A DNA stretch of 64,000 nucleotides from Bdellovibrionales bacterium (lineage in GTDB: Bacteria > Bdellovibrionota > Bdellovibrionia > Bdellovibrionales > UBA1609). The notes under the pieces are model-generated. The model saw only the letters and a list, made by a program, of their open reading frames with translations, made no database searches and had not been told where the DNA came from. A program made the position numbers and the translations under genes. Location of the stretch: contig OZ241877.1 in NCBI GenBank assembly GCA_965203095.1, forward strand, positions 960,001 to 1,024,000, in the 5' to 3' direction. Below, one piece after another: positions 582 to 21,659 of the stretch. How positions within the stretch are numbered: the first letter of the stretch is position 1; each line of letters begins with the position of its first letter.

Positions 582-908
582 CTATTTTTTAGAGCTTTGA
601 GACTTGATTTTCTCAAGGATAGTTAAGATTTTAGCCTGTCCCGCCTCAAGATTTTCCATTCTTATCTCAAGCTTATCCATTCTTTTCTCAAGATTAGCTT
701 GTCCAGTCTCAAGCTTATTAAATCGTGAGTTAGACCAAGTAAAAACTACAGACAAAGAGATAATCATAAAAGAGGCTATAGCCATTAACAAAATTCCACC
801 TGTGAATAAGGGGACAAGTCCTTTTATTTTATCCATACTCATTCCTTTAGCCTTGCTATCATCCCTTTCTATTTGTGCCGGCGTGGCTGGGTTCAATGTT
901 TCAGACAT
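582..908 (-). CDS. Small membrane-anchored coiled-coil protein
   Basis: One TM helix followed by heptads (LEKRMDKLEIRMENLEAGQ). RBS AAGGAG before the ATG. Upstream TTGACA-N17-GATAAT. Confidence 0.7.
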   Translation of the reverse strand: MSETLNPATPAQIERDDSKAKGMSMDKIKGLVPLFTGGILLMAIASFMIISLSVVFTWSNSRFNKLETGQANLEKRMDKLEIRMENLEAGQAKILTILEKIKSQSSKK

Positions 909-942
909 ATTGCTCCTTAAGGTTTAGCTTATATCCTTATCC

Positions 943-971
943 ATTATCAGTTCATTGTCCGGAAATGTCAA
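943..971 (-). promoter_or_regulatory. sigma70-type promoter with CCGGACA spacer core
   Basis: Minus strand TTGACA-tttccggacaatgaact-GATAAT (17-nt spacer). Confidence 0.7.
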
Positions 972-1091
972 GGTTTTATTTAAAGTGCTCAAATATTATA
1001 GCCAAAATAGGCTTTTTTAGGCAAAACGGATTGGCTCTGAGGGGAGAAAAAGCAGGACCTTAAGATAAACTTAATGATCTGTTTGTTTGAG

Positions 1092-1574
1092 CTATCTCTT
1101 TTTGGCCCATATCCCTGATTGTAATTCCGAACCAAAAAAGCCAGAAGTAAAAGCTTTTTTGACCTTTACTCCGGAGCTTCCCCTTTGAGATGGTTTTTTT
1201 GAAGGTCGTCTTTTTTTAGAAAACTTTTTTTTGGAAGTCTGGGGCTTTAAAACCAGCCTCTCAATTTTTATCCCACTAATTTTTTTAGAATGAGCATTAA
1301 AAACTGGGGGTTTTAACTTTTTTTCTTTTCCCCCATTTATCAAAAACTCCTTTTGCTCCTTTAAAACTTTAATCTCAAGCCTTATCTTTTTCAAATCCTC
1401 AAAAAAAAGTAAAAACTGCTTGTCCTCCGGCTTGCAATTTTGAGAGCAATAAGTATCCCCGTGCTCTGAGATAATCTTTAAATATTTTTTCTTATGCTTT
1501 GGCCATTTGTTCATAGCCGGATTGTCTCTTATGAGAGCTTGGATTTTCTTATTGATCTGAGAAAGATCAGACAT
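1092..1574 (-). CDS. Hypothetical Lys-rich protein
   Basis: 160-aa ORF, basic C-terminus, no recognised motif. Confidence 0.5.
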   Translation of the reverse strand: MSDLSQINKKIQALIRDNPAMNKWPKHKKKYLKIISEHGDTYCSQNCKPEDKQFLLFFEDLKKIRLEIKVLKEQKEFLINGGKEKKLKPPVFNAHSKKISGIKIERLVLKPQTSKKKFSKKRRPSKKPSQRGSSGVKVKKAFTSGFFGSELQSGIWAKKR

Positions 1575-1730
1575 ACTTTATTAGAAAATCAATTTTTCAA
1601 ACTTGTCAAATATTCTCAAAAAAAAGAAGCAATAAATAAATCATCTCAATATTATTGGCTGAATTGGAAAACCTTAAGCTTTTTTTAAAAAGCTCAAAAG
1701 CCCGTTGGTAAAGGCTTTATTGTTTTGAAA

Positions 1731-1812
1731 AAGCTTAAAAAGTGTCTCATTTTGGCCTAAAACCGGGCCCTTTTAAGCAAACAGCCCGGCAGAACCGGGC
1801 TGAAAGCTATCA
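1731..1812 (-). repeat. ~80-bp hairpin-containing repeat, copy 1 (copy 2 at ~15656-15737)
   Basis: Both copies share AAAAAGTGTCTCATTTTGGCCTAAAA and the CAGCCCGG-N5-CCGGGCTG hairpin. Confidence 0.8.
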
Positions 1813-1852
1813 ATAGAAAGAACATGTTTAAGCACTGTGCTTATCGGACAAG

Positions 1853-1978
1853 CTATCTCAATGTTTTAATTTTTTTTCTCACTTCAGCTATTTGCTTATC
1901 AGCCTTTTCCTTCAATTCCTCACTTAAGCTCTTAGAAACAAAAAGCAATCTTTTAATATCTAAAAGGATCTGACTCAT
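1853..1978 (-). CDS. Possible 41-aa small protein
   Basis: Manual translation MSQILLDIKRLLFVSKSLSEELKEKADKQIAEVRKKIKTLR*; below the ORF-track cutoff. Confidence 0.3.
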   Translation of the reverse strand: MSQILLDIKRLLFVSKSLSEELKEKADKQIAEVRKKIKTLR

Positions 1979-2008
1979 TTCCTGAAAAAGAACAGGCTTT
2001 TATATCAA

Positions 2009-2024
2009 TGTTCCGCGTGGAACA
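2009..2024. promoter_or_regulatory. parS: parS centromere site 1
   Basis: TGTTCCGCGTGGAACA resembles the parS consensus TGTTNCACGTGAAACA. Arms extend to 2003-2030. Near parA and oriC. Confidence 0.85.
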
Positions 2025-2082
2025 TTGATATTGGTTAAAACTCTCTTGAAAAACAAAAAAGTTTTGCCTTTAAAAACCCAAA

Positions 2083-2098
2083 TGTTCCGCGTGGAACA
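2083..2098. promoter_or_regulatory. parS: parS centromere site 2
   Basis: Second identical TGTTCCGCGTGGAACA, 74 bp from the first. Confidence 0.85.
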
Positions 2099-2169
2099 TT
2101 TGGAACTGTGCCTCTGTTTGTTAATTCTCAATCCCTCAAAGACAGAACAAGATAGACAGAGAAAAAATC

Positions 2170-2310
2170 CTAATAACAAAAATCGCCATAATTGGAATTG
2201 GCCAAAATTAAGCAAAAAAAATCCAAAAAAATCGCCTGAAAGGCATCATGGCAGTTATTAGCAAAAGCCGGCAAGCTCATTAAAAGGATAAGGCTTAATA
2301 ATATTTTCAT
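2170..2310 (-). pseudogene. Truncated cassette: signal peptide of the pentapeptide-protein family without its body
   Basis: MKILLSLILLMSLPAFAN (as in 4221..4994) then unrelated sequence and a stop after 46 codons. Keeps the promoter and box module at 2321-2378, with a 1-bp deletion in the promoter spacer. Confidence 0.7.
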
Positions 2311-2459
2311 TGTGTTTGGCTATAGCAGGATGTCCGGGAAAATAAAGAATTAGAGGGACTTTTGTAAATTTTTCACACAAAGAGCAGAAGGCTTGCCGGT
2401 AAAGGGGTTATTGTGTGGCAAGAAAATGTCGTCTAAAAAAAGAGAGGGTTTTTAAAGGC

Positions 2460-2633: not shown

Positions 2634-2649
2634 TCCATTCATACAGTCC

Positions 2650-2678
2650 ATTATATGGACATTGGCCGGGAATGTCAA
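2650..2678 (-). promoter_or_regulatory. Perfect-consensus sigma70 promoter
   Basis: Minus strand TTGACA-ttcccggccaatgtcca-TATAAT. Confidence 0.8.
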
Positions 2679-3892: not shown

Positions 3893-4098
3893 ACTTATCT
3901 TATCGGTTCATTGTCCGGGAATATAAAGGGCGGAGTCTCAAAGGAAAAGGGGGGGCATGATTATCACAATGGGGGGCAGGACGTTTTACCCCCGGAGGCT
4001 ATTTTTCACAAAAAAATCCTAAAAAAAAATCACCTGAAAAGCAATATAGACAAGGCTTATAGACGATTTTAAGCCGATTCCAGGAAAAAAATGATCTG

Positions 4099-4220
4099 CC
4101 CCCCTTAGCGATATTAACCCCACCCCCCATCGCTTGGGACTCCACCCTTGTTTTTGAGGCTTATTTGATAGCTGAGGGCTTTGGATATTGATAGAGATTA
4201 GAGAGAAAATATAGAGGGGT
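4099..4220 (-). repeat. G-rich plus pyrimidine-rich 3' module (~120 bp); also at ~7360-7486 and ~16708-16835
   Basis: Near-identical blocks CCCCCC..GATA..AACCCCACCCCC(C/G)ATCGCTTGGGACTCCACCCTTGTTTTTGAGGCTTATTTGATAGCTGAGGGC...GATAGAGATTAGAGAGAAAA on the plus strand. Confidence 0.9.
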
Positions 4221-6226: not shown

Positions 6227-6254
6227 AGTCCCTCCTTTTAGGGTTGTTTCCTGT

Positions 6255-6345
6255 TTATCTTATCGGTTGTTTGTCCGGATCTCTTAGTCCTGTTTTCTCA
6301 AAACTGGACTTCAGTTCCTTCAATTCTTTTGAGAGGCTGTCTATT
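6255..6345 (-). pseudogene. Remnant of the 3' end of a fibre-gene paralogue carrying a sigma28-type promoter
   Basis: Highly similar to 18535-18625 (end of the 943-aa fibre gene), including CTTAGTCCTGTTTTCTCAAAACTGGACTTCAGTT. Confidence 0.8.
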
Positions 6346-6437: not shown

Positions 6438-6842
6438 TTAATCCATCCAACATGTAATATATTCTGTTTCATAAAAACCGCCATAATCATTCCAGTCTGT
6501 TTGTGTGTATTTGTGCCTTGTTTTTACTTTTGGCAGGTCAATCTCTATCTCTTCCGGGGGGCACAGACGACCATCTGACAACTTTTTTTGAACATGCCCC
6601 TCAAAACTCACAGAACACCCGTCATAATAGTCAGGATCTAAAACCATCCCCCCAGCTTGGGCTATAACTGTGCTCCCACTTACAAGTTCACAAGTGTCGT
6701 CTTGACCTGAATGATCAGAATATATCTTAAATTGTTCCCCAATTTTTATCCTCTTAACATTGGAAATCCAATCAGGATCGGACCAAAAGAAAGCTCCAGC
6801 GGTAAAAGAATAAAGGGAAAAGATAAATAATAATGCTTTCAT
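6438..6842 (-). CDS. Secreted Cys-containing protein, family B copy 1
   Basis: Signal peptide MKALLFIFSLYSFTAGA, four Cys. Paralogue of 9691..10098. Confidence 0.8.
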   Translation of the reverse strand: MKALLFIFSLYSFTAGAFFWSDPDWISNVKRIKIGEQFKIYSDHSGQDDTCELVSGSTVIAQAGGMVLDPDYYDGCSVSFEGHVQKKLSDGRLCPPEEIEIDLPKVKTRHKYTQTDWNDYGGFYETEYITCWMD

Positions 6843-6911: not shown

Positions 6912-7268
6912 TTACCTTTGTCCTGTGCTCCCCCTTTGAGAAGTGCCTGAGCAGGATTGGGCTTGTCTATCTGCTGTTTTGTCTATTGTTTTGATTGCGT
7001 TGTCTAATCTGTCTGATATTGAGTCAATCGTAATGATTGCTTTGTCCAATCTGTCTGATATTGAGTTTATTGTTTTGCGATTGTGATCCACTGCTGGGGC
7101 TATTTCACTTAAGGTTTTACGATTGCTTTTTACATTGTCTATAATCTCATTTTGTTTCTCTTTTAGGCTATCTAATTTTGTTTTAACAGTATAGTCGGGT
7201 CTACCGTGATCATGCCCCATTGAATGAGCACTGAATGTTATGAAAAAAGAAAGCAATAAGTAGATCAT
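6912..7268 (-). CDS. Secreted small coiled-coil protein, family C copy 1
   Basis: Signal peptide MIYLLLSFFITFSAHS, internal tandem IDSISDRLD repeats, GSTGQR end. Upstream CCGATAAG promoter. Confidence 0.8.
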   Translation of the reverse strand: MIYLLLSFFITFSAHSMGHDHGRPDYTVKTKLDSLKEKQNEIIDNVKSNRKTLSEIAPAVDHNRKTINSISDRLDKAIITIDSISDRLDNAIKTIDKTADRQAQSCSGTSQRGSTGQR

Positions 7269-8623: not shown

Positions 8624-8899
8624 TTATCTGGACGTAAACCATATTGTCATAATAAAGGTTAAAACCCACGGTGTTAAAATCCAAATCCATAGCGGGCTGT
8701 GACTATGTCCTTCTTTATCAATTTTGGAATGTTCCCACTGAACACAGGCAACCTTCTTTTTATTTTTCTCACAATACTTATTAAGTAAAGCTCTATTTTT
8801 CTCATGATTTTTAAATTCATAGCCGTCTAAAGTGTCCGGAGCGGTAGTCGCACAGGAATTTAATACCAAACAAAAGATTATCAAGTGTTTTAAGCTCAT
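8624..8899 (-). CDS. Small lipoprotein with C-terminal TM helix
   Basis: Lipobox-like VLNSC, hydrophobic C-terminus, GCCGATAT about 10 nt upstream of the ATG. Confidence 0.65.
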   Translation of the reverse strand: MSLKHLIIFCLVLNSCATTAPDTLDGYEFKNHEKNRALLNKYCEKNKKKVACVQWEHSKIDKEGHSHSPLWIWILTPWVLTFIMTIWFTSR

Positions 8900-8924
8900 T
8901 CTATCCTCTATATCGGCTGTTTTT

Positions 8925-9287
8925 ATGGGAAAATATAGGGTTTTTGAGTCAAATAAGGGGGGAAGGACAAAACTTCTTTTAGATTATGAGAAAAGAGATA
9001 AGTTTTTTGAGCTTTGCAAGAGTTTGGGGATTAAAAATAAGCAGACAGAATATTTGATCTGCTTTTATAAAACAGGATCTTTAAAAGCAGTAGTAAAGGA
9101 AACAGGAAAAACCCCGGACTATATCCATAAAACCTTTTCCCGCATAAGAAAAAAGATTGAAAAAACGGAATTTAAAAATATTCACATGCTTTTAGGCTAT
9201 TTTGAGCGAATTTATCAAAAAAACTGGCCCCGTCTGAATGAAATAAGGGAAATATTAGAGCTAAAACTCAATGAAAAGTCTCTATAA
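8925..9287 (+). CDS. Putative HTH DNA-binding protein
   Basis: KQTEYLICFYKTGSLKAVVKETGKTPDYIHKTFSRIRKKI resembles LysR/sigma-region-4-type HTHs. Start moved to ATG 8925 to avoid overlap with the opposite-strand gene. Confidence 0.55.
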   Translation: MGKYRVFESNKGGRTKLLLDYEKRDKFFELCKSLGIKNKQTEYLICFYKTGSLKAVVKETGKTPDYIHKTFSRIRKKIEKTEFKNIHMLLGYFERIYQKNWPRLNEIREILELKLNEKSL

Positions 9288-9576
9288 CACCACCCACTGG
9301 CAAAAAACCAGAGAGAGAAAGCTTAGAAAAAACCCTCTCTGTGAAATATGTCTTAAGAGGGGAAAGCTTGTTAAGGCCAGTGAGATTGACCATATTACCC
9401 CTTGGCGGGAAATAGAGAGCTTTTTCTGTAAATTTTCAGACCTTCAAAGCCTTTGCAAGTCGTGCCATTCCCGGAAAACTGCACTTGAGAAGGCCAGAAA
9501 AGCTAAACAACTACTCCAAAAAGAGCCTGATCTTGCCAAGATAAAGGCACGGAAAACTAAAGCCTATTTTTTCTAA
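9271..9576 (+). CDS. HNH endonuclease (phage gp74-like)
   Basis: Y...W...R...L...PLCxxC...A.EIDHI.P...LQSLCxxCHxxKT motif. Confidence 0.9.
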   Translation: MKSLYNTTHWQKTRERKLRKNPLCEICLKRGKLVKASEIDHITPWREIESFFCKFSDLQSLCKSCHSRKTALEKARKAKQLLQKEPDLAKIKARKTKAYFF

Positions 9577-9690: not shown

Positions 9691-10098
9691 TCAAAAACGG
9701 CATTCTAAATACCAGCTTTTTTTACCCGCTATATAGCGGTATCCATATTCGGCTCTTGTTGGATAGTCTGGTAGATCGATCTCTATCTTTATCGAGGAGC
9801 ACAAGCTACCGTCTGATAATTTTTTTTGAACATAACCTTCAAAAGAAACATAGCATGCACCTGCCGAAAGATCTGACTCTGCATCCAGCACCCCAGAAGA
9901 GGCAACTATTGTGCTTCCGCTTACAAGCTCACAAGAATTATTGCCTGAGCCTGAATGATTAGAATATATCTTAAAAGGCTTTCCAAAATATATTTTCCGA
10001 ACATTAGACGACCAATCAGGATCAGGAGTTAAAAAGTCCCAAAACCCTGCTCCAGCGGTAAAAGAATAAAGGGAAAAGATAAATAATAATGCTTTCAT
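9691..10098 (-). CDS. Secreted Cys-containing protein, family B copy 2
   Basis: Same signal peptide and CELVSGST core as 6438..6842. Confidence 0.8.
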   Translation of the reverse strand: MKALLFIFSLYSFTAGAGFWDFLTPDPDWSSNVRKIYFGKPFKIYSNHSGSGNNSCELVSGSTIVASSGVLDAESDLSAGACYVSFEGYVQKKLSDGSLCSSIKIEIDLPDYPTRAEYGYRYIAGKKSWYLECRF

Positions 10099-10173
10099 TG
10101 TTCTCTTATAGCAGGATTGTCCGGAAAAATAAAGTCTGTTGTAAATTTTTCACACTAAAGGGCTGTTTTACCT

Positions 10174-10404
10174 TTACCTGCTACAAGGGTTTTTTATATC
10201 CCTTTGGCCTTCCCAAGTCACAGTGCCAGGGGCCTTGCCAGAATGATAGCGAAAACACTCCCCACTTTCCAAGTGAGATTCTATTCTGAAGGCCAGAAAA
10301 GGCGAACCTTCTTTAAACATTGCAACAGGTCCAGTTTTTAAGCCAAAAGCTCCGGCAAGGATCATTGCTGAAACAACTAACAAAAGCAAATACTCAACAA
10401 CCAT
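10174..10404 (-). CDS. Flp/Tad-like pilin
   Basis: xVVEYLLLLVV hydrophobic N-terminus with the EY motif, C-terminal Cys pair, RBS AAGGAG. Confidence 0.65.
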   Translation of the reverse strand: MVVEYLLLLVVSAMILAGAFGLKTGPVAMFKEGSPFLAFRIESHLESGECFRYHSGKAPGTVTWEGQRDIKNPCSR

Positions 10405-10436
10405 TATAAAACTCCTTATGTTTGTCTAATGCGGTT

Positions 10437-10793
10437 TTACCTTTGGCCTGTGCTTCCCTTCTTTTCTTTAAGAAGGCGGGGCCGGAGCGGTTCAGGATTA
10501 GAAGTGCCAGAGCTTAAAGGAATACCAGAGCAAGACTCCTTTGTTGCATGAATGTTTTTTTGATTATTGCTAACAACATTCAATATCTCATTTAATAATC
10601 TTTTATTAGCATTAACACTATCCATAATCTGGTTATGTTTATTAGCTAACTGCACTATTGCCACACTTTGGCTGGCTGATTGTTGTATTAGGGCTTTATT
10701 TAATTTGTTTTGGTTATGCCCATGCCCGCTTTGACTATGCCCCCTTGAATGAGCACTGAATGTTATGAAAAAAGAAAGCACTAAGTAGATCAT
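10437..10793 (-). CDS. Secreted small coiled-coil protein, family C copy 3
   Basis: Signal peptide; paralogue of 8046..8402. Confidence 0.8.
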   Translation of the reverse strand: MIYLVLSFFITFSAHSRGHSQSGHGHNQNKLNKALIQQSASQSVAIVQLANKHNQIMDSVNANKRLLNEILNVVSNNQKNIHATKESCSGIPLSSGTSNPEPLRPRLLKEKKGSTGQR

Positions 10794-11000
10794 CTCAATA
10801 AGCTTATCGGACGATATTGAGAAAACTTAAGAAAAAAGGCTTATTTTTTATAGAAAGGGTATAGAAAAGGCTCAAAATTTATAGATCTGTTATAAAAACG
10901 GCTCAAAAAGTATAGATCCAAGCAAAAGAGAGAATTAAAAATAAAATAATGATTGAAACCAAAAGAAAAGGGATAGTCACAAAAGCTTTTGAATTTAAAA

Positions 11001-11121
11001 TCATTTTGGATATTTTGAGGCAAACAAGTTTAGACCCTTTCTCTTTTTTATACATGAGGCTCTGTAGTTTTTTAGCTCTAATCTATATTGGCCCATTTTA
11101 TCCATAAGTTTTTTTCTGTCT
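11001..11121 (-). pseudogene. 3' fragment of the lipoprotein gene 14083..14394 created by the duplication
   Basis: Matches 14083-14203 and is cut by the IS end. Confidence 0.8.
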
Positions 11122-13042
11122 CCCGACTTCCGCATTTTGTGATCAGGAATCCAGTATTATCAAGGGTTTGCGAGGAGGCTTGGGTCACTACATTCAAGAC
11201 TTTAGTTTGTGATATTAGGACATAAATTTAATAGTTCGTGGGAAGGTTTTGTTAAAGGCTTTGTAGATATTCTTTTGTGTTTCGTTGATTGTAGAAGGCA
11301 GGAAGAATTTCTTTCCTGTGGATGTGTCCTCTATATAACTGATTTGGACAAGACTTAATTCTTGTTTAATGACTTCAAAACTAAGGTTTATATTTTTAGA
11401 TTTCAAAACATGCCTCACAAAAACCGTCAGACCATAAGCTATAAAACATATTAACACATGAGCCTTTATCCTTCTCGGTGTCCAATGATAGATAGGTCTC
11501 ATCTTCAAATCATGTTTGTTCATACGAAAAGCAGATTCTATTTGCCAAAGATTTTTGTATTTTTCCAATATGTTATGGGCCGTCTCTTTTTTGTTGTTTA
11601 CAGCTACAGCACTGAATCCGTCCCATAAACGCTCCGCTTGTATCTTGTCTTCATTTAAAACAGCCCAACCCTTCTGTTTTAACTCCAAATACTTCTTAAG
11701 TCCTGTGTTTTTAACCAAATCCTTCACACGAACCCGACCACCTTTCATCTTTTCTTTTATCTTAACTAAAAGCTTTTCTCTTTCTTTTCTATCCTTATCC
11801 GCTCTGGCCCGATCATAACGGACAATGAGACGAAAACCCTCCCACTCATATTCCCTCGTCCAGCCTCGAACCTTTCTAAAATCCCCTCTTTTAGAAAAAG
11901 CAGGAGCTTCCGACAACACCCTCTCCTTCAAAGACTTCTTCATTGACTTCAGCCGGGCCCCAGCTATAAACTGAACTTTCCTTTTATCCATCTCAAAAAG
12001 ATTTTTCTTGGAAAACATCCCACGATCAGCAACTAAAAACACATCCCGAATATCATAACTCTTTGATATATTATCTATCGTCTGGAGCAAAGTATTGCCC
12101 TCAAAAGTATTACCAGAAAAAAGCTCATAACCTATAGGCAAACCCCCTTTAGTCGTCATCAAAGACAGAACAACCTGTGTCTCTTTGATCTTATTGTCCT
12201 TGCTAAAACCACAACTCCTCAAATCATCCTCCATAAAACTCTCAAAATACAATGTCGTCACATCAAAAAACACAACATCAATACGCTCTTTAAACAAACT
12301 CAATGTCCTCTCGGTTAGCTTGCCTTTTAAAATCTCACTATTCTTATAAACCTTGTCCATCATCCGATAAACACGATCCAAAGGTATAGAATGAACACCA
12401 GCAGACCTTCTGCTTATGTCCAAAACACTACCCCGCTTACTCATTGGACTTTTTAACCGATGTAAAACCATATCCTTCAACAATTGACTGGCCTCTCTAT
12501 GCTTATATCCCTCATTAAAACAGGACGATAAACCCAGCTCATCGTAAACCTTGCCAAATATGTCTGAAATCCCCACAACTTGACGACTCTCCTCTTTCAG
12601 ACTTGGTGCATGAACCATATCTCCAGGATAAAAACTCCTCGCCTTCTCTCTTGCAGGGTCCTCCTTGGACTCCTCCTTAAAAAGTGGGGACTGATCTTTT
12701 TCTTTTAAGTCCCGAATAACTTTTCTGCCGATCTTGTAAAATAAAGCAATTTTCTCTTTATCGCTTTGATGGCAATGTCCTACACAGCCAATAGTCTCTT
12801 GTCTGACTTTTTTGCCTTCTCTACGGCTTCTGACCACACGGATGGAAACATGGCCATTGGCTTTTTTAACTTCACGAATAAACATACTGGCAGAATAAGA
12901 GAAGACAGAAGGCTTGTCAAGTAAATAAATTAAAAATATTGCTTTATTTTTATCAAGGGCCACTACACCCCAACACAACAATAAAAAGCCCATAAACTGG
13001 GCCTTTTAAACCCTTACAACCCTACAAAATGCGGAAGTCGGG
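11122..13042 (-). mobile_element. IS1634-family insertion sequence (1921 bp)
   Basis: 19-bp perfect terminal inverted repeats CCCGACTTCCGCATTTTGT (11122-11140) and ACAAAATGCGGAAGTCGGG (13024-13042) enclosing one DDE transposase. Confidence 0.92.
11215..12885 (-). CDS. IS1634-family DDE transposase
   Basis: FFDVTTLYFES, GFSKD, VADRGM and YKNLWQIESAFRMNK..L.MRPIYHW...RIKAHV motifs. Start at MFIREVKK, 6 nt after TTGACA-N17-TATTCT. Confidence 0.92.
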   Translation of the reverse strand: MFIREVKKANGHVSIRVVRSRREGKKVRQETIGCVGHCHQSDKEKIALFYKIGRKVIRDLKEKDQSPLFKEESKEDPAREKARSFYPGDMVHAPSLKEESRQVVGISDIFGKVYDELGLSSCFNEGYKHREASQLLKDMVLHRLKSPMSKRGSVLDISRRSAGVHSIPLDRVYRMMDKVYKNSEILKGKLTERTLSLFKERIDVVFFDVTTLYFESFMEDDLRSCGFSKDNKIKETQVVLSLMTTKGGLPIGYELFSGNTFEGNTLLQTIDNISKSYDIRDVFLVADRGMFSKKNLFEMDKRKVQFIAGARLKSMKKSLKERVLSEAPAFSKRGDFRKVRGWTREYEWEGFRLIVRYDRARADKDRKEREKLLVKIKEKMKGGRVRVKDLVKNTGLKKYLELKQKGWAVLNEDKIQAERLWDGFSAVAVNNKKETAHNILEKYKNLWQIESAFRMNKHDLKMRPIYHWTPRRIKAHVLICFIAYGLTVFVRHVLKSKNINLSFEVIKQELSLVQISYIEDTSTGKKFFLPSTINETQKNIYKAFNKTFPRTIKFMS

Positions 13043-13180
13043 AGAATATATCTTAAAAGGCTTTCCAAAATATATTTTCCGAACATTAGACGACCAATCA
13101 GGATCAGGAGTTAAAAAGTCCCAAAACCCTGCTCCAGCGGTAAAAGAATAAAGGGAAAAGATAAATAATAATGCTTTCAT
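13043..13180 (-). pseudogene. 5' fragment of a family B gene truncated by the IS
   Basis: Matches 9961-10098. Confidence 0.8.
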
Positions 13181-13255
13181 TGTTCTCTTATAGCAGGATT
13201 GTCCGGAAAAATAAAGTCTGTTGTAAATTTTTCACACTAAAGGGCTGTTTTACCT

Positions 13256-13486
13256 TTACCTGCTACAAGGGTTTTTTATATCCCTTTGGCCTTCCCAAGT
13301 CACAGTGCCAGGGGCCTTGCCAGAATGATAGCGAAAACACTCCCCACTTTCCAAGTGAGATTCTATTCTGAAGGCCAGAAAAGGCGAACCTTCTTTAAAC
13401 ATTGCAACAGGTCCAGTTTTTAAGCCAAAAGCTCCGGCAAGGATCATTGCTGAAACAACTAACAAAAGCAAATACTCAACAACCAT
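13256..13486 (-). CDS. Flp/Tad-like pilin (duplicate)
   Basis: Identical translation to 10174..10404. Confidence 0.65.
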   Translation of the reverse strand: MVVEYLLLLVVSAMILAGAFGLKTGPVAMFKEGSPFLAFRIESHLESGECFRYHSGKAPGTVTWEGQRDIKNPCSR

Positions 13487-13518
13487 TATAAAACTCCTTA
13501 TGTTTGTCTAATGCGGTT

Positions 13519-13875
13519 TTACCTTTGGCCTGTGCTTCCCTTCTTTTCTTTAAGAAGGCGGGGCCGGAGCGGTTCAGGATTAGAAGTGCCAGAGCTTAAA
13601 GGAATACCAGAGCAAGACTCCTTTGTTGCATGAATGTTTTTTTGATTATTGCTAACAACATTCAATATCTCATTTAATAATCTTTTATTAGCATTAACAC
13701 TATCCATAATCTGGTTATGTTTATTAGCTAACTGCACTATTGCCACACTTTGGCTGGCTGATTGTTGTATTAGGGCTTTATTTAATTTGTTTTGGTTATG
13801 CCCATGCCCGCTTTGACTATGCCCCCTTGAATGAGCACTGAATGTTATGAAAAAAGAAAGCACTAAGTAGATCAT
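13519..13875 (-). CDS. Secreted small coiled-coil protein, family C copy 4 (duplicate)
   Basis: Identical translation to 10437..10793. Confidence 0.8.
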   Translation of the reverse strand: MIYLVLSFFITFSAHSRGHSQSGHGHNQNKLNKALIQQSASQSVAIVQLANKHNQIMDSVNANKRLLNEILNVVSNNQKNIHATKESCSGIPLSSGTSNPEPLRPRLLKEKKGSTGQR

Positions 13876-14082
13876 CTCAATAAGCTTATCGGACGATATT
13901 GAGAAAACTTAAGAAAAAAGGCTTATTTTTTATAGAAAGGGTATAGAAAAGGCTCAAAATTTATAGATCTGTTATAAAAACGGCTCAAAAAGTATAGATC
14001 CAAGCAAAAGAGAGAATTAAAAATAAAATAATGATTGAAACCAAAAGAAAAGGGATAGTCACAAAAGCTTTTGAATTTAAAA

Positions 14083-14394
14083 TCATTTTGGATATTTTGA
14101 GGCAAACAAGTTTAGACCCTTTCTCTTTTTTATACATGAGGCTCTGTAGTTTTTTAGCTCTAATCTATATTGGCCCATTTTATCCATAAGTTTTTTTCTG
14201 TCTCTGTGTTTATTTACTTGCGAACTATAAGCCAAAATCAAAATATTCTCAAAAAGTTTATTAGTCTCTGTGGCAATGTCTTGTCTTAACTTTTGGCATT
14301 TTAAAGATTTTTTTGTTTCACCAATTTTATTGCCTGTAGTTTGACAAGCAGAGATTAAAAAAAATAAAAAGATCAATAAGATTTTTTGTTTCAT
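14083..14394 (-). CDS. Small lipoprotein
   Basis: MKQKILLIFLFFLISAC lipobox. Start overlaps the stop of the upstream gene (ATGA). Confidence 0.75.
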   Translation of the reverse strand: MKQKILLIFLFFLISACQTTGNKIGETKKSLKCQKLRQDIATETNKLFENILILAYSSQVNKHRDRKKLMDKMGQYRLELKNYRASCIKKRKGLNLFASKYPK

Positions 14395-15605
14395 TGTTTT
14401 GACTTCTCTTTTTCTATCTTACAACTTTCCCCACAATAGGATTGAATGAGCTGGCTCATTTTTTCAAAAATACTGCTATGCACTCCGGTTTTAGAAAACA
14501 AGTCCCCCTTCTGATTTTTGAAAGCCCCTGCTAATTTTTTATTATCTTTTCCTTTTTTCCCTCCCTGAGAAGGGCCTCCTGGGGCCTGCCCCCGGTTATT
14601 AGCAGACGGAGTAGTCAGCCCCCCGGAAAAAGCCCCGGTGATCCCCTGATTGTTCCGCCAAGCCTCATTCTCATTGTCATCATCCTCTATTAACCCTTCC
14701 CCATCATTATTAGAGGCGGAGCTAAGTCCTCTGCCCAAATCAGAACCACCCAATCCCCCAGAAGGTTTTGAGTCGGAAGTGTTTTTTTGCCCATTAAGTG
14801 AAGGGGATAAACCTGCTGTGTTGTCACTTCCTGTCCCTTCTTTAGTGGTTTTGTATTTTTCCCCTTTATCCTTTTTTGCCACAGTGGTTTTTTTCTCTTT
14901 TGGTTTTTCTGGTGGAGTAAATTCTTTTGTGGTTTTTTTCTCATCTTTTCCCGGTGAAGTGTCGGGAGCTGTTGTGGTGGCTGTTGGAAGGCTGGGACCT
15001 ATAAAATCAGGGAGCGGAGCTATATCATCATCAGGGCAATCATCGCCTTTGCATTTTTCCTTTTCAGTGTCCCCGCCAAGTTTTTTTAAAGCCATAAAAG
15101 ATATTCCCGCATTCATAGCAGACAATCCCGCTTGCATTAGGGCCTGTTCGCAACTTGCTCCATGCGTTTCGCATTCGGATAAAACTGCTTGTTTGTTTTT
15201 TTTCTCAATCGGATCAATACCCTCTGTTTCCGGATTACAATTTGTCCTACATTTGTTTAAAGCGGAAGTGCAATCATCATAAGCAGACAAAGCATGAACA
15301 GCCATAGCACTATTTATAGCTATACTCCCCTTGTGAGCAAGGCTGGCAGACCCGCCTCCGTCTTCAGTGGAGGACACAGCGTCCGTGCCGGCTTTCCCCA
15401 CCATAAGAGCACTTTCCATGCTTAGCATTCCCTTGCTTGCTTTCAAAACTTCAAGTGAAAGGGAGTTGTCACAAACAGGCGGTGTTTCTTTTTCCGGGGT
15501 TTCCGGTTTTGTCGGGGGGAGGGGAGGGGGCTGGACAACCCCGGTCCCAGGGTTGGGTGCCCAGGATTGGGAAATCCATAAAAGAATTAAAATCAGACCT
15601 TTCAT
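14391..15605 (-). CDS. Secreted Cys/Pro/Gly-rich low-complexity protein
   Basis: Signal peptide, Cys-containing helical region, long disordered linker, C-terminal SIFEKMS..I..Y motif. GCCGATAA promoter just upstream. Confidence 0.75.
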   Translation of the reverse strand: MKGLILILLWISQSWAPNPGTGVVQPPPLPPTKPETPEKETPPVCDNSLSLEVLKASKGMLSMESALMVGKAGTDAVSSTEDGGGSASLAHKGSIAINSAMAVHALSAYDDCTSALNKCRTNCNPETEGIDPIEKKNKQAVLSECETHGASCEQALMQAGLSAMNAGISFMALKKLGGDTEKEKCKGDDCPDDDIAPLPDFIGPSLPTATTTAPDTSPGKDEKKTTKEFTPPEKPKEKKTTVAKKDKGEKYKTTKEGTGSDNTAGLSPSLNGQKNTSDSKPSGGLGGSDLGRGLSSASNNDGEGLIEDDDNENEAWRNNQGITGAFSGGLTTPSANNRGQAPGGPSQGGKKGKDNKKLAGAFKNQKGDLFSKTGVHSSIFEKMSQLIQSYCGESCKIEKEKSKQ

Positions 15606-15830: not shown

Positions 15831-16589
15831 TTAAATCCCTAATCTTGTCCTGAGCCGGGCGACTTGAGTAATACTCCAATTTTTATTTCCCCATCTTGTT
15901 TTTACTTTTAACCTTTCCAGTTCTTCGGCCATTTGTTCAAGGGTTAAGCCTTGTTCTATAAGAAGGATAAGAGCAGGCATTATCTGTTCAGCATACTGAT
16001 CCGCTTTACTTAATTCAGTTTCAGCTTTTTTTTCTTTTGCCCTTTTTATTTCCTGATAAGTTGGTTTTGGTTTTTTATGAACCTTCCAATAAGCTTTTAA
16101 TGCTTTCCTTATTTTAGGATTATGCCAGCCAAGTTTTTTTCCTTTCTTTTTTAATTCAGCTAAAGCCAACTTGGTTCTTTTAGAGATTTGCTCCCTTTCC
16201 CATTCGGCTAATGTTCCCATTAAGTGGAGCTGGAGTTTGTCCATTTGAGGATAATCACAACAAATAAAATCAATCTTAGCTTTTTCAATGGAAGTAATGA
16301 AATGAAGATCACGACTGAGTCTATCTAATTTGGCCACAATGAGGATTCCTTTAAGACCATAAGTTAGATCCAGGGCTTCTATGAGTTTTGGCCGGTTATG
16401 AGTTTTTTTACCGCTTTCTATTTCAGTAAAAGAATGCTCTGGGGGGAATTTTCTTTTTTGTTCTTTAAGGAATTTTTTGACGGCTGTTTTTTGTGCTGAA
16501 ATGCCAAGCCCTTTTATCCCTTGTTTATCTGTGGAAACTCTATAATAGGCTATGTAAGGTCGTCTGGTTTTTCTTTTGGTTTTTTTCAT
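15831..16589 (-). CDS. Serine recombinase (resolvase/invertase catalytic domain plus C-terminal HTH/recombinase-like region)
   Basis: AYYRVSTDKQ catalytic Ser motif, E.ESG...RP.L, LIVAKLDRLSR, AEWERE.IS.RTK, C-terminal TRWG...W...QV.R. Confidence 0.93.
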   Translation of the reverse strand: MKKTKRKTRRPYIAYYRVSTDKQGIKGLGISAQKTAVKKFLKEQKRKFPPEHSFTEIESGKKTHNRPKLIEALDLTYGLKGILIVAKLDRLSRDLHFITSIEKAKIDFICCDYPQMDKLQLHLMGTLAEWEREQISKRTKLALAELKKKGKKLGWHNPKIRKALKAYWKVHKKPKPTYQEIKRAKEKKAETELSKADQYAEQIMPALILLIEQGLTLEQMAEELERLKVKTRWGNKNWSITQVARLRTRLGI

Positions 16590-17897: not shown

Positions 17898-17977
17898 TGG
17901 TTGTCTTATAGCAGGATTGTCCGGGAAAATAAAGTCTTTTAAAGCATTTTGTAAAATTTTCACACAAAGGGCGGAGC

Positions 17978-18505
17978 TTAATCCACCCAGTTAATCTTGT
18001 CTGTGTTCAATGCTCCGCTTTTCATAATCATGTCACGATATTTTGAGTCTATATAAGCAAAACTTAGGTTTGTTCCTTTAAACTTTGCCCCTCTCAAGTC
18101 CGCCTCTCTCAAGTTCGCCCCTGCCATTTTTGCCCCTCTCAAGTCTGCCCCTATTAAAATCGCCGCTTCCAAGTCCGCCCTTAATAAGATCGCTTTATAC
18201 AAGTTCGCAAAAGCCAGATTCCCCCCTTCCAAGTCCGTAGCAGTCAAGTCCGCATACTTCAAGTCTGCCCTTCTTAAGTCCGCCTCTCTCAAGTTCGCCC
18301 CCGATAAGTTCCCCCCTATCAAGTTTACCTTTTGCAAGCTTTTTCTCCCTTGTTTTATTTGTTCAATCAGTTCGCTCGCCCCTCGATAGGCCAACCCTAC
18401 TTGGGATTGAGGAGTCCTTTCCCCTTGAGTTTCTTTTTTGGCAAACTTAAGAGACTCACAAGATAAAATAAAAGACGATAGAAAAATATAAAATAGGATT
18501 TTCAT
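17978..18505 (-). CDS. Pentapeptide-repeat lipoprotein 9
   Basis: RBS GGAGGG before MKILFYIFLSSFILSC (lipobox), repeats, common C-cap. Confidence 0.9.
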   Translation of the reverse strand: MKILFYIFLSSFILSCESLKFAKKETQGERTPQSQVGLAYRGASELIEQIKQGRKSLQKVNLIGGNLSGANLREADLRRADLKYADLTATDLEGGNLAFANLYKAILLRADLEAAILIGADLRGAKMAGANLREADLRGAKFKGTNLSFAYIDSKYRDMIMKSGALNTDKINWVD

Positions 18506-18534
18506 ATTCCCTCCGTTTAAGGTTTGTTTCATGT

Positions 18535-21366
18535 TTATCTTATCGGCTGTTTGTCCGTGTTTCTTAGTCCTGTTTTCTCAAAACTGGACTTCAGTTTTAG
18601 AAGTTCTTTTGAGAGGCTGTCTATTTTTTCATTGGCTGATTTTAGTTCCTGTTTGGTGTTGGCCAACTCTTTTTTTGTTCCTGCCAACTCTTTTTTAAAC
18701 TGATCGTCTGTTTTGCTGAGGGCTTTAAAGTTTGCCTCTATTGTGGAATGAAGGGCTTTTATCCCGGCCCACAATGTCCCATAGATAGAGGGCCAGTCCG
18801 GAGCAATAGGCTTTCCTTTAAGCTGTAAGTTTTTTGGCAAGTCCTCCGCTATCACTCCCATTCTTTTCTTTTTAGGAAAATTGTCTTTATCCTTAAAATA
18901 ATAAGTGAATAGGGGAGTATCTAAAACATCCTTCAAAGCCTTTTCCATATCATTAAAGGGACGAATATTCTTTTTATAAACTTTGGATGATCGGCCTTGT
19001 TGCCTATACACACAGCGATTGGCATTGCTGTCCCAAAAAGAGTTTTCACCTGGGCATCTGTTTGTTATGGCACTTGCACAAACTTTATTCCCGGCAGAGT
19101 TAAAACCTTTTAAAAATTCACCAGACCCAGAACATTGCTGTTTCCAGCCTGTGCCTCCAGTGGCCACACAATTTAAAGTTCCATCGGCATTAAATCCTCT
19201 AAGGACTTGGCCAGAGGGGCAAGTTCCTATAGTGGCCCGCTTCCCGCAAAGCTTTCCATTGCCATCAAAGCCTCTAAGATATTCATTCCAAGCACACTTA
19301 ACACCATCTCCGGCAGACTTGATTACAACATTACTCCCTTTGATATAAGTCCCACCATTGCCAGAGATAGTCTCCCCGTGCCCCGCACCTGCTCCTATCA
19401 AAGTATTATAATGCCCAGTGATCCTTGCTCGCCGGCCGGCGTCATGGCCTAAAAGAATATTCAGCCTCCCAGAGATATATCCATCAGGACTTTGCCCCGA
19501 AAAATCCTTTTTCCCCGACCCCTGCCCAATAAAAACATTGTCATCCGCCCCGCTTCTTATATCCGCATTCCATCCCGCACTATGCCCTAAAAAAGTGTTT
19601 TTAGACCCGGACACTGTGGCTTCTTGGCCGGCATGATCGCCAATAAAATGGTTCTGCCCTCCGCTCACTGTGGCTTTTTTCCCAGCATTGTCCCCAAAAA
19701 AATGATTGCCTCCACCTGAGATTGTGGCTTCTCTACCAGCATTAGTGCCAACAAAAGTGTTGCTTGAGCCTGCTGTTATTTTTGTCTTATATCCCGACTG
19801 ATTACCAAAAAAATGATTATAGCCCCCTCCACCTGTCACTTCGGACTCACGGCCTGAAGATGACCCCACAAAATGATTGCCTGACTTTGAGATTGTCCCT
19901 TTAAAACCTGAATCTGGACCTATAAAAGTATTGTAATCCCCGGATATTTTAGCAGTCCTCCCGGCGGCATGTCCTAAAAGACTATTATCATCCCCACTAA
20001 TATAACCGCCTGTGGTAGTTCCCTGATCTTTTCTGCCGGCTTCTTTTCCTATAAAAACATTTCCAATAGCACCGGATCTTATATCCGCATAACTGCCCGC
20101 ATGATCACCTAAAAAAGTATTGTTTCCACCGGCCACTGTGGCCCTATTCCCTGCATGATAGCCCACAAATGTATTGTTCCCACCGGACACTGTGGCGACA
20201 TTCCCCGCCGACCTACCTAAAAAAGTATTAAATCCCCCGCTCACTGTGGCATAATATCCTGAGTCCCTACCAAAAAAATAACTATTCGCCCCCGTGATAG
20301 TCGCCCCCCTTGCTACATCATTACCAAAAGCGGTTGTGCCTGTGCCACCAAGTGATTGTGTGCTACCACAACCAGCAAGGGTTCTTTTGCTCCCAGTAGC
20401 CTCCGCTTTATAACAGCGGTTTTTCCCGCCGGATATTCCTATCACATCGCAAGTAAAATTGTCATAAGCACTATTAGGAGCGGCCGGCCAGGTAATGTCT
20501 AAAGTCAAAAGTTTTCCCCGGATAAAAGTCATCCCCCTTTGAATGCCAGGGATAAGAGTCCAAGTTTTTTTGCAGGGATAAGTCGTCCCGCTGGCCTTAC
20601 AATCACAACTCCCGCCATTGTCTGCTGGATTACATCTCAAAACAAAAAAGCGGGGGAAAAATCCATAGCGGGAAAATATGTTGTTAGAATCATGAACATC
20701 TAAAAGATTAGAGCTGGCTGACTTTTTTATGATTTTAAACTCTATCTCATTGCCTTCAGTCCCCTCTGCCAACTTAGCCTTTTGAGCACTTGTAGGGGCC
20801 GGATAGTTAGGAGCTGTATTCTGATTAAGCCAGCCTTTTATTGTTTCCTCACAATTAGTTTCAGTCCCAAACTGTTCCCAAAAAGCATTCAATTCCCTTT
20901 CTTTATTTATTTGCCTTTGCTGTTGGGCTATCAAAGCCGCATGTTTAGCCATGCCCGTCATGGCTATAACCCCAATAGTGGATGCCACCATAACACCGGT
21001 AATAGAAAAGCCTTTATTATTTAAAAGAAAAGTTTTTTTGTGTTTAAAATGATTTAAACTATTGAATTTACAGCATTTTTCGGGGGGGGGGGGGGTAAAT
21101 TTACCGTCCCGAAATGAAATGGCCTTTGGGCAAAAAGCTAAGGAATAAGACTTTTCAATAAGTTTTTGCGGAAAAGATTGGGATTTCTGGATTCCCGTTT
21201 TCACGGGAGCCAGAAAGCCTGGGGGGCTTTCTGGCAAGGTTCGGCGGGAAATGACTGTTTTCACGAGAGCTAAAAAGCTTGGGGAGCTTTTTGGCAAACT
21301 TTGCAGAGAAATGACAGACTCTCTCAAGGGTTTGTTTTTTAATATATTTTTCAAAAAAACTTTCAT
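18535..21366 (-). CDS. Fibre/adhesin: prepilin-type cleavage motif, Gly-rich beta-repeats, C-terminal peptidase S74-like chaperone and coiled coil
   Basis: KGFSITGVMVASTIGVIA at about residue 118; tandem ATVSGGxNTFLGxxAG repeats; Cys modules (C..GE.L.GF...G...C); SSKVYKKNIRP...MGVIAEDL...PDW..IYG.LWAGIKAL, typical of tail-fibre intramolecular chaperones. Confidence 0.85.
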   Translation of the reverse strand: MKVFLKNILKNKPLRESVISLQSLPKSSPSFLALVKTVISRRTLPESPPGFLAPVKTGIQKSQSFPQKLIEKSYSLAFCPKAISFRDGKFTPPPPEKCCKFNSLNHFKHKKTFLLNNKGFSITGVMVASTIGVIAMTGMAKHAALIAQQQRQINKERELNAFWEQFGTETNCEETIKGWLNQNTAPNYPAPTSAQKAKLAEGTEGNEIEFKIIKKSASSNLLDVHDSNNIFSRYGFFPRFFVLRCNPADNGGSCDCKASGTTYPCKKTWTLIPGIQRGMTFIRGKLLTLDITWPAAPNSAYDNFTCDVIGISGGKNRCYKAEATGSKRTLAGCGSTQSLGGTGTTAFGNDVARGATITGANSYFFGRDSGYYATVSGGFNTFLGRSAGNVATVSGGNNTFVGYHAGNRATVAGGNNTFLGDHAGSYADIRSGAIGNVFIGKEAGRKDQGTTTGGYISGDDNSLLGHAAGRTAKISGDYNTFIGPDSGFKGTISKSGNHFVGSSSGRESEVTGGGGYNHFFGNQSGYKTKITAGSSNTFVGTNAGREATISGGGNHFFGDNAGKKATVSGGQNHFIGDHAGQEATVSGSKNTFLGHSAGWNADIRSGADDNVFIGQGSGKKDFSGQSPDGYISGRLNILLGHDAGRRARITGHYNTLIGAGAGHGETISGNGGTYIKGSNVVIKSAGDGVKCAWNEYLRGFDGNGKLCGKRATIGTCPSGQVLRGFNADGTLNCVATGGTGWKQQCSGSGEFLKGFNSAGNKVCASAITNRCPGENSFWDSNANRCVYRQQGRSSKVYKKNIRPFNDMEKALKDVLDTPLFTYYFKDKDNFPKKKRMGVIAEDLPKNLQLKGKPIAPDWPSIYGTLWAGIKALHSTIEANFKALSKTDDQFKKELAGTKKELANTKQELKSANEKIDSLSKELLKLKSSFEKTGLRNTDKQPIR
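21082..21095 (+). repeat. G14 homopolymer (C14 on the coding strand) inside the fibre ORF
   Basis: CGGGGGGGGGGGGGGT, encodes TPPPPE. Confidence 0.95.
21188..21322. repeat. REP-like palindromic units inside the 5' part of the fibre ORF
   Basis: TGGATTCCCGTTTTCACGGGA, GCCAGAAAGCC..GGCTTTCTGGC and a degenerate second unit. A related TGGATTCCCGC..GCGGGAA lies at 63411. Confidence 0.6.
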
Positions 21367-21659
21367 ATAAAGACCTATCGGTTTTTTGTTTAAAAAACTT
21401 TAGAAAAAAAGCCAGATCAGGCAAAAAACAGCTAAAATCTGTTTTTTTAACGGGTTTTTTTACAGAAAGGCTCAAGGATGTAGTATGTCCTGATCTTTCG
21501 TCCAGCTTGAAAAGCCAATAGATCCAACACTTACAACTACAAGAAATTCCAAATGGCGAACTCAGGAAAAATAAGAATTTGTCTTGATTGTTCATAAATC
21601 AGGACATATCTTTGCATAATGATCGCTTTTAACCATATAGCCGGGGGGCTTAAAACCAC

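Follow-up and report, generated by a model that had tools for sequence, protein, structure and literature searches.

An integron combines an IntI-type tyrosine integrase with promoterless cassettes, attC sites and a common Pc promoter, and a diversity-generating retroelement (DGR) combines a reverse transcriptase with a pair of template and variable repeats. In the vsp, vlp, vpma and mpl families of Mycoplasma, small-genome, host-dependent carriers, paralogues with a conserved 5′ region and signal peptide have repetitive, variable bodies and vary in phase through homopolymers or DNA inversion; vsp and vpma switch by means of a site-specific recombinase with a defined target site, and it is usually a single promoter that is shifted among silent genes. 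Neisseria pilC is a phase-variable contingency gene with a homopolymer tract. For the lipoprotein-like (lpl) cluster of Staphylococcus aureus, located in the island nuSa-alpha, recombination at a conserved block has been described (Tsuru and Kobayashi 2008, PMC2568036). Here we analysed a 64-kb stretch of DNA (the window; positions 960001-1024000 of the chromosome) from an uncultured relative of Bdellovibrio, and in it an array of genes for exported proteins between parA and rsmG. In the original prediction this array was taken for a possible cassette-like system, in which self-promoted units are shuffled through shared modules. Our data indicate that the interval between parA and rsmG is probably a variable zone of species-specific families of exported proteins, built and remodelled by duplication, by an insertion sequence (IS) of the IS1634 family and by homologous recombination, and not by a dedicated cassette system.

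The chromosome consists of one contig of 1.78 Mb with a GC content of 38 %, the assembly holds a second contig of 17 kb, and the genome is 90 % complete. The closest named relatives of its MnmG come from metagenome-assembled genomes (MAGs) labelled Oligoflexia (72 %) and Bdellovibrionaceae (70 %). Contigs of a public run labelled sponge metagenome match part of the interval, positions 1501-1876 without mismatch, and the bacterium appears to be associated with sponges. The interval measures 22.5 kb. On one side it is bounded by parA, of which the window holds the N-terminal part, the complete gene and parB lying directly upstream of the window in the genome (L034); on the other side it is bounded by rsmG (22927-23532) and mnmG (23562-25433). 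The description of the locus as origin-proximal is fair because dnaA lies ~7 kb past rsmG; the GC skew, with a cumulative minimum near 1.21 Mb, is too weak a marker.

The proposed array of exported-protein genes, ~21 kb long and mostly on the minus strand, is real. All the genes listed for it are present: nine genes for pentapeptide-repeat proteins (PRPs), four 118-aa genes, two 134/135-aa genes and one fibre gene, together with a serine recombinase (PF00239) and an HNH nuclease (PF01844), both of which do lie inside the array. That inventory had missed a transposase of the IS1634 family (11215-12993), and no family model backs its label ‘pilin’, with no Pfam match and an N-terminal VVEY-hydrophobic motif as the sole sign. 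Nine of the 38 open reading frames (ORFs) scanned exceeded the cut-off of the Pfam Pentapeptide family, with 77-206 bits against 20.2. These PRPs carry tandem A(D/N)LXX repeats that score above the Pfam gathering threshold of PF00805. Each of the nine has a signal-peptide-like N-terminus, and one, PRP9, has a lipobox (by eye). The positions of the genes and other features are collected in Table 1.

Four kinds of non-coding module had been described for the array, and all were found: a palindromic box (GTGTGAAAAATTTACA), a promoter with a CCGGACAAT core, a pyrimidine-rich 3′ module and a G-rich module. Truncated units, duplicates and chimeras are present as well. The modules occur far above chance; CCGGACAA is found 164 times in the genome, compared to ~28 occurrences expected from composition. 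When all intergenic regions were compared in gene orientation, a fixed unit layout was observed. At its 3′ end, a unit closes with the codons ..G-A-L-N-T-D-K-I-N-W-V-D-stop, where a 7-bp hairpin (GGGTGGA/TCCGCCC) overlaps the coding sequence; TTTGTGTG comes next. After the hairpin comes an imperfect palindrome centred on GTGTGAAAAATTTACA, and after this a promoter-like TTTAC(T)-N16/17-(G)CTATAAG that carries CCGGACAAT within its spacer. The −10-like element lies 8-11 nt ahead of the ATG, without a Shine-Dalgarno site, in 26 of 32 genomic cases; in the remaining six the distance is 31-45 nt and a GGAG-type site is present. The ATG opens a conserved signal peptide (MKILLSLILLMSLPAF), and then the variable core begins. 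The shared 5′ block thus comprises promoter and signal peptide, and the shared 3′ block comprises the last 11 codons and the stop-codon hairpin.

These shared 5′ and 3′ blocks bracket unrelated cores, and the claim that the units are modular and that each has its own promoter was borne out. These cores include PRPs, whose repeats number from four to over 30, the 134-aa Cys protein and two membrane-span families, one of 210-228 aa with spans and one of 89-111 aa with one span. The tail typical of the PRPs (..ALNTDKINWVD) also ends one member of the 89-111-aa family (genome coordinates 8991-9326). The 3′ module is read in two frames, as ..NTDKINWVD in 26 ORFs and as ..IEHRQD in three. Because the same block is read in two frames, its conservation is one of DNA and not of protein. 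Reading in the ..IEHRQD frame was noted for 3407-3892 and 5694-5903 of the window and for 1470844-1471113 of the chromosome. In PRP2 (3407-3892) the own stop codon is lost and the reading frame continues into a second 3′ module.

Units that close an array carry a pyrimidine-rich block (CCTCTATTTTTCTCTCTAATCTCTATCTATATC..) behind their stop codon. This module folds worse than shuffled sequence (z = +0.8 to +1.6), and for it alone a role as intrinsic terminator was dropped. In folding, the 3′ and G-rich modules do not surpass their shuffled versions (z = −0.04 to +1.6), and a structured-RNA reading of them was dropped for this reason. The window gave no Rfam match at gathering thresholds and no tRNA in ARAGORN, which rules out that the modules are known RNA families or tRNA-derived sites. 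The pyrimidine-rich module is C-rich, G-poor and unstructured, Rho is encoded in the genome, and a Rho-utilisation site was considered as a possible function.

The modules are not a property of this locus alone, as the promoter core, the 3′ end and the PRPs are spread over at least 12 loci of the genome. With up to three mismatches allowed, the promoter core has 32 genomic matches, nine of them in this locus, and an ORF opening with the conserved signal peptide lies within 60 nt downstream in 30 of the 32. The PRP 3′ end has 33 genomic matches and the pyrimidine-rich module 25. A profile built from the nine PRPs detected 52 ORFs in the genome, including seven shadow frames, which leaves ~45 genes. 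Two further arrays, at 184.8-191.7 kb and 472.6-479.3 kb, repeat the order of fibre, lipoprotein-PRP and PRPs; the loci that start with a fibre gene number three.

Outside this genome, little of the family was detected. A tblastn search with PRP7 gave 67 pieces in this genome compared to 0-11 in each of 30 relatives. The DNA of the promoter block has 40 matches here, and in the same genus only marginal matches of 20-25 nt in three of nine genomes (E ~1e-3). For the palindromic box, too, the genus gave nothing beyond these short matches. In a search of 5.8 billion proteins, full-length matches came from the own genome and from one short contig (53 % identity), and the rest match the repeats only. 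By these searches, the family of PRPs and exported proteins is species-specific. A literature search for exported pentapeptide proteins in sponge symbionts, and for this lineage, surfaced nothing specific among the papers listed.

To what extent the units exchange sequence can be seen in identity profiles against the two sister arrays. Patches of 100 % identity and 150-400 nt in length (4185-4335, 4740-4990, 18003-18400) adjoin stretches of 85-95 % and of 50-65 % identity, where the low values partly reflect different paralogues paired in the global alignment. In PRP9, ~400 nt are 100 % identical to a paralogue at 188.3 kb. PRP4, PRP8 and a gene at 477.3 kb are 99 % identical, yet their promoter variants and 3′ neighbours differ. 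The fibre genes are mosaic, with conserved ends and a variable middle. The perfect patches beside stretches of 50-65 % identity point to gene conversion between distant arrays. In agreement with the prediction that breakpoints between paralogues should fall at the modules, 11 of 26 ends of matches with at least 90 % identity lie no more than 25 nt from a module, compared to 10 % of the region (p = 3e-5), although this enrichment is partly circular, as discussed below.

In several respects the locus resembles the Mycoplasma families, with its many paralogues, conserved 5′ region and signal peptide and repetitive, variable bodies. Here, however, every unit is self-promoted and there is no defined recombination site. 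The likeness to lpl concerns the arrangement and the proposed process: in both, exported-protein genes stand in tandem in a variable island, a conserved block reaches from the 3′ end of an ORF across the spacer to the 5′ end of the following one, and variable parts are shuffled by recombination at conserved sequence, with no dedicated recombinase in the account given for lpl (PMC2568036). Tandem paralogues, conserved blocks and mosaic relations, the features that characterize lpl-type clusters, were all found here. The conserved block is central in the lpl genes as described (PMC2568036), whereas here the ends are conserved and the core is variable. Also, the same ends are found here on unrelated cores, the units are dispersed over several loci, and the payload consists mostly of PRP β-helices.

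A second source of change is the IS1634-family element in the array, whose transposase scores 349 bits on NF033559.2 (cut-off 100). It is flanked on both sides by a direct repeat of 1160 bp. The left repeat contains the 5′ part of the 135-aa gene, a 76-aa ORF, a 118-aa gene and a 3′ fragment of the 103-aa lipoprotein gene, and one insertion event of the element accounts for the near-identical duplicates of the 118- and 76-aa genes, the truncated 135-aa gene and the lipoprotein fragment. The genome holds four copies of the IS, one of them 100 % identical to the copy in the window. All four are abutted by direct repeats, of 1369 bp (99.7 % identity), 1160 bp (100 %), 3340 bp (99.8 %) and 84 bp (100 %); the other copies with their repeats occupy positions 173889-178548, 1224252-1232867 and 1350868-1352968 of the chromosome. 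At two other loci, PRP genes were duplicated by the same IS-flanking process. A related element in a genome of the same genus (G007; L032:7879-9949) has repeats of ~55 bp.

IS1634 and IS1549 are the two elements reported with long direct repeats of variable length, 8-514 bp, by a mechanism given as unknown (PMC2266710), and for other members of the IS1634 family repeats of 5-6 bp are reported (PMC2266710; PMC8024623). By the time of the survey of 2008, such long repeats had no proposed mechanism (PMC2266710). The element described here belongs to the same transposase family (NF033559) as IS1634 and IS1549 and has their hallmark, direct repeats that are long and vary in length, but its repeats measure 84, 1160, 1369 and 3340 bp, compared to the reported range of 8-514 bp (PMC2266710). 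Repeats of up to 3340 bp mean that whole genes are duplicated. We regard IS1634 elements with flanking repeats of up to 3.3 kb, duplicating whole genes, as a lead.

The interval between rsmG and parA was also compared among relatives. Relatives of the same genus share an RsmG identity of only 42-56 %. In G008 the order is mnmG-rsmG-parA-parB and the gap measures 0.22 kb. In G002 the interval is 4.6 kb long and contains a small coiled-coil ORF, a fragment of an IS1634-type transposase and a lipoprotein gene bordered by perfect inverted repeats of 62 nt. G007 has 11.5 kb with an IS1634-type element, a prepilin-type protein, another transposase and a coiled-coil repeat protein, and in G009 rsmG and parA are ~96 kb apart. 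In the Bdellovibrionaceae MAG CAR1_bin_21 (L002), rsmG is followed by rpoN and pstSCAB. The interval thus differs in every relative examined, as had been anticipated, but it holds different insertions and not the same cassettes in another order. The rsmG-parA site is an insertion hot spot across the genus. Two further observations were made in these genomes. The perfect 62-nt inverted repeats of G002 (L031:4002-4063 and 5335-5396) flank a gene for a 315-aa lipoprotein, and the pair is a candidate for an invertible or composite segment. In G007 (L032:2080-4818), mnmG comes immediately behind rsmG but on the other strand; the conserved mnmG-rsmG pair is thus inverted there.

If the interval is a variable zone of this kind, tandem and segmental duplication would have assembled the units in the plasticity zone between rsmG and parA, and the IS1634-family element would duplicate kilobase-sized target DNA. 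Homologous recombination or gene conversion between the conserved junction blocks, which may serve as substrates for RecA-type exchange, would remodel the array in an ongoing process. Because of such exchange at the junction blocks, the cores would behave as cassettes on an evolutionary time scale. Short-term variation would arise from poly-C slippage in the leader of the fibre gene and not from the recombinase. Of the proposed cassette-like shuffling, one half survives, namely modular units with exchange at shared modules, to which the mosaic of perfect patches testifies. The other half, a dedicated and locus-specific cassette system, is unsupported because modules and families are spread over so many loci.

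Several points weigh against this reading. The enrichment of match ends at modules is partly circular because the modules are by definition the conserved ends of units. The patches of 100 % identity could partly stem from the polishing of a long-read assembly with short reads. What is said here on promoter class, leaderless transcription, export and surface location is read from the sequence. The G-rich module has three direct copies and an inverted one, and because the recombinase gene adjoins one of the direct copies, a local switch is conceivable, though improbable. Finally, the dynamics rest on short contigs of public runs. Nine runs were found, no RNA run among them, and four of the nine contain 0.80-0.91 of the sampled words. 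Positions 1501-21500 were compared with the contigs of four runs (X1, X2, X4 and X5), the longest piece being 1889 nt. The joints listed (15 of 77) have 20-58 nt on the shorter side, with no strand-changing joint among them. With such short sides they are as expected from cross-mapping of paralogues and were read in this way, giving no verdict on the order of units.

Another explanation for the shared modules would be pure conservation of a regulon, in which selection keeps the modules as binding sites of a regulator and a sigma factor and as export signals in an old, static cluster without exchange. It would account for the palindromic box, which stands at a fixed distance from the promoter and whose variants differ by ~11 nt, for CCGGACAAT, which keeps its position in the spacer of otherwise different promoters, and for the genome-wide enrichment of a sigma-28-like motif. 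However, the similarity goes beyond motifs alone, since whole blocks of 80-240 nt are 85-100 % identical, and the 3′ module is conserved even out of frame. Perfect patches of 150-400 nt are shared between loci ~490-790 kb apart, and the module was not found in the genus outside this genome. We therefore consider a static regulon unlikely.

It seems more doubtful still that the array is shuffled in a programmed, site-specific manner, with the serine recombinase acting on the G-rich modules to invert or delete blocks of units or to flip a promoter segment of ~100 nt ahead of PRP2. One G-rich module is part of an element of roughly 230-280 nt that resembles a miniature inverted-repeat transposable element (MITE). 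The inverted arms of this element enclose a short segment ahead of PRP2, and a second copy with such flanking inverted repeats lies upstream of a unit at 1468.6 kb. Solo G-rich arms are located at 7358-7419 and at 16709-16768, the latter directly upstream of the recombinase gene, and the best PHROG of the recombinase is the DNA invertase phrog_125 (2e-32). Yet the arms of the inverted pair are only 77 % complementary, the three direct G-rich copies end at differing points without a single core (by eye), and both full MITE-like copies share the same internal orientation. On the Mpi invertase model the recombinase scores 51.6 bits, far under the cut-off of 272, and it is nearest (34-40 % identity) to phage and plasmid genes called resolvase or recombinase. 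Most units and modules are located at loci without any G-rich module. The recombinase is single-copy in the genome and was found in none of the 30 relatives at E<=1e-10, which, together with the many loci that carry the modules, also speaks against a dedicated cassette system run by the recombinase or the HNH nuclease.

The locus is like integrons and DGRs in having short gene units close to a recombinase and in encoding a repertoire of exported proteins that is variable. The prediction had stated that the characteristic enzyme of neither system is encoded in the window, and this proved correct. No Phage_integrase match was found among the 38 ORFs, the three genomic ones lying at 511, 558 and 675 kb, and no match to PF00078, the reverse transcriptase family of DGRs, was found in the 90 % complete genome. 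In contrast to an integron, the window has no attC-type sites and each unit is self-promoted. The junctions are blocks of direct repeats and not attC-like imperfect palindromes, with the promoter 8-11 or 31-45 nt before the ATG.

That the repeats, duplicates and chimeras are collapsed or mis-joined paralogues, as might be suspected in a repeat-rich region where short-read contigs break at every module, is hardly credible. The chromosome is a single 1.78-Mb contig, and public-run contigs from two samples agree with unique stretches without mismatch. These contigs stop 30 nt into the IS-flanking repeat at either outer side (9547-9990 and 14175-14846), which fits the presence of both outer junctions. 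Two of the four IS-flanking repeat pairs are slightly diverged (99.7 % and 99.8 %), which an artefact would not give.

The variable zone that we favour is of interest since recombining, phase-varying multigene families of surface proteins are known mainly from small-genome pathogens, and here such a locus would be found in an uncultured relative of Bdellovibrio with a 1.8-Mb genome. The payload is unusual, with ~45 exported PRP β-helices and the same promoter, signal-peptide and tail modules on unrelated cores. The products of the array are probably exported to the envelope or surface, where they would meet host or prey, and the array defines a candidate set of host- or prey-contact proteins. 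A more far-reaching idea, which we put forward as improbable, is that the unit ends form a portable express-and-export adaptor, made of a leaderless promoter with signal peptide at one end and a coding tail with stop-codon hairpin at the other, and that with turnover of the cores the whole acts as an engine of surface variation. If so, it would be enough to set a core between two adaptors for it to be made as a secreted protein. Turnover could then proceed by recombination at the adaptors, for which the G-rich (G-quadruplex-prone) modules or the serine recombinase might provide the start, by IS1634 copying kilobase stretches of target at each landing, and by poly-C switches on six fibre genes.

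Regarding expression, the genome encodes FliA, a sigma factor of the FliA/WhiG type (chromosome positions 1163775-1164443; 254 bits, cut-off 189.6), and no flagellin was found in the genome at its 90 % completeness. For promoters of the Bdellovibrio attack phase, the consensus TTAAG-N16-CCGATA is given (PMC3627812). The related pattern [TC]TAAG-N15-16-CCGATA has 20 matches in the genome compared to 0-7 in 10 Markov simulations, an enrichment of about ten-fold, and these matches lie upstream of lipoproteins, a Flp pilin and secreted proteins. Five of the 20 are located in this locus, ahead of three 118-aa genes, PRP5 and PRP9. The fibre gene has TAAAG-N16-CCGATAGG ahead of its ATG (by eye). It therefore seems likely that the 118-aa genes, the fibre gene, PRP5 and PRP9 use FliA (sigma-28)-like promoters, as attack-phase genes of Bdellovibrio do. 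The mRNAs of most units would be leaderless or nearly so. These motifs suggest, as a lead, a candidate FliA-type regulon in a genome in which flagellin was not detected.

The fibre gene carries a C14 tract at 21082-21095, within the reading frame and between the ATG (21366) and the prepilin-like segment. In six fibre paralogues a poly-C tract is present in the same context, with lengths of 14, 17, 18, 18, 18 and 22; the other tracts are located at chromosome positions 113725, 191449, 472733, 1223165 and 1414917. The lengths across the six paralogues fall in all three frames, which points to independent on/off switching of six fibre genes by means of poly-C, and the tract in the fibre leader is likely to be an on/off switch. 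Among the indels listed from the public-run contigs, which drop rare variants, there is no entry for the C14 tract. Like contingency genes of the pilC type in Neisseria, this is a pilus-type fibre gene with poly-C in its 5′ coding leader; here, the length differs among six paralogues, so that the likeness rests on differences between paralogues and not on differences within a population.

For the PRPs, an AlphaFold model of PRP7 was obtained from an alignment of the nine sequences, with a predicted local distance difference test (pLDDT) score of 89.7. It consists of a signal helix, an N-terminal helix, a quadrilateral β-helix, and a C-terminal helix and strand. Foldseek matched the model to 58 PDB chains at E<=0.001, the top matches being the pentapeptide-repeat proteins HetL, Np275/276, MfpA, Rfr32 and Rfr23 as well as designed solenoids. 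Lumenal cyanobacterial Rfr proteins are among the best PDB matches. According to the model, the fold of the PRPs is a pentapeptide β-helix, a right-handed quadrilateral of the Rfr type. We know of no established extracellular role for the pentapeptide-repeat fold.

Table 1. Features of the parA-rsmG interval and its boundaries (positions in the window)
Feature	Position	Strand	Evidence and remarks
parA, N-terminal 136 codons	1..408	-	Pfam AAA_31 (1e-39), CbiA, ParA; lower boundary of variable interval
108-aa membrane and coiled-coil protein	582..908	-	promoter 943-971, TTGACA-N17-GATAAT with CCGGACAAT in spacer; Shine-Dalgarno site
Truncated unit: promoter module and first signal-peptide codons, without gene body	2277..2390	-	88 % match to promoter-block query positions 12-125; repeat families D7, D11
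PRP1-PRP5, in tandem, each with own promoter module	2777-3310, 3407-3892, 4221-4994, 5132-5599, 5681-6226	-	Pfam Pentapeptide, 6e-22 to 2e-62
MITE-like element upstream of PRP2	3926..4158		G-rich arm 4084-4158 and diverged inverted arm 3926-3987 flank ~100 nt (I1)
Fibre-gene 3′ remnant bearing the PRP5 promoter	6236..6345	-	88 % identical to 18516-18625 (repeat D20)
134-aa exported Cys-containing protein	6438..6842	-	PRP-type promoter module; paralogue 9691-10098; truncated 52-aa copy 13022-13180
118-aa exported coiled-coil protein	6912..7268	-	sigma-28-like promoter TTAAG-N15-CCGATAAG
PRP6	7487-7900	-	Pfam Pentapeptide, 7e-28; 89-96 % identity to units at 476-478 kb
151-aa ORF and phage-type HNH endonuclease (9271-9576)	8832..9576	+	PF01844, 3e-10; phrog_144, 1e-22
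Left 1160-bp direct repeat	9961..11120		100 % identical to 13043-14202
IS1634-family insertion sequence	11121..13042	-	transposase 11215-12993; perfect 22-nt terminal inverted repeats
Right 1160-bp direct repeat	13043..14202		abuts right end of IS
103-aa lipoprotein and 404-aa low-complexity exported protein, overlapping genes	14083..15605	-	sigma-28-like −10 element upstream (by eye)
Small serine recombinase, 252 aa, resolvase/invertase type	15831..16589	-	PF00239, 3e-25, 89 bits; own sigma-70-like promoter 16601-16629
PRP7, PRP8, PRP9	16836-17348, 17430-17897, 17978-18505	-	Pfam Pentapeptide; directly downstream of fibre gene
943-aa prepilin-type fibre, Peptidase_S74 and C-terminal coiled coil	18535..21366	-	Pfam; C14 tract in leader
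rsmG and mnmG	22927..25433	-	GidB 1e-26, GIDA 1e-154; upper boundary of variable interval

Among the remaining genes of the array, the 118-aa gene is present in four copies, with paralogues at 8046-8402, 10437-10793 and 13519-13875, and two identical 76-aa ORFs lie at 10174 and 13256. The array also holds two lipoprotein-like ORFs. The 151-aa ORF and the HNH gene are its sole plus-strand genes, and the HNH protein is of a common phage type by PHROGs. In the Protein Atlas, the fibre gave a score of 0.84 to clusters with Peptidase_S74 and a prepilin N-methyl motif, which serves as a lead only. The 134-aa family has no match to Pfam or PHROGs, and its Protein Atlas score of 0.76 gives no lead. 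No PHROGs or NCBIfam match was obtained for the 91-, 103-, 151- and 404-aa proteins and the 76-aa ORF, nor for two plus-strand membrane proteins at 21660-22912.

The gene of the 108-aa protein has paralogues with the same promoter at 186, 225.6 and 262 kb. Three genomes of the genus carry, in their rsmG-parA interval, small proteins with a membrane span, a coiled coil and repeats of the GQAK-IEQRMD type (window 582-908 and 2460-2678; L031:2970-3212; L032:12548-12823). The spacer ahead of the 118-aa gene at 8046-8402 (positions 8403-8623) is bounded by a 37-nt direct repeat (AAAATCTCTCAAAATAGGCATACTGTGGGCCTTCTGG), which replaces the −35 part of the sigma-28-like promoter of this gene. The segment 8403-8623 resembles a small insertion accompanied by a target duplication of considerable length.

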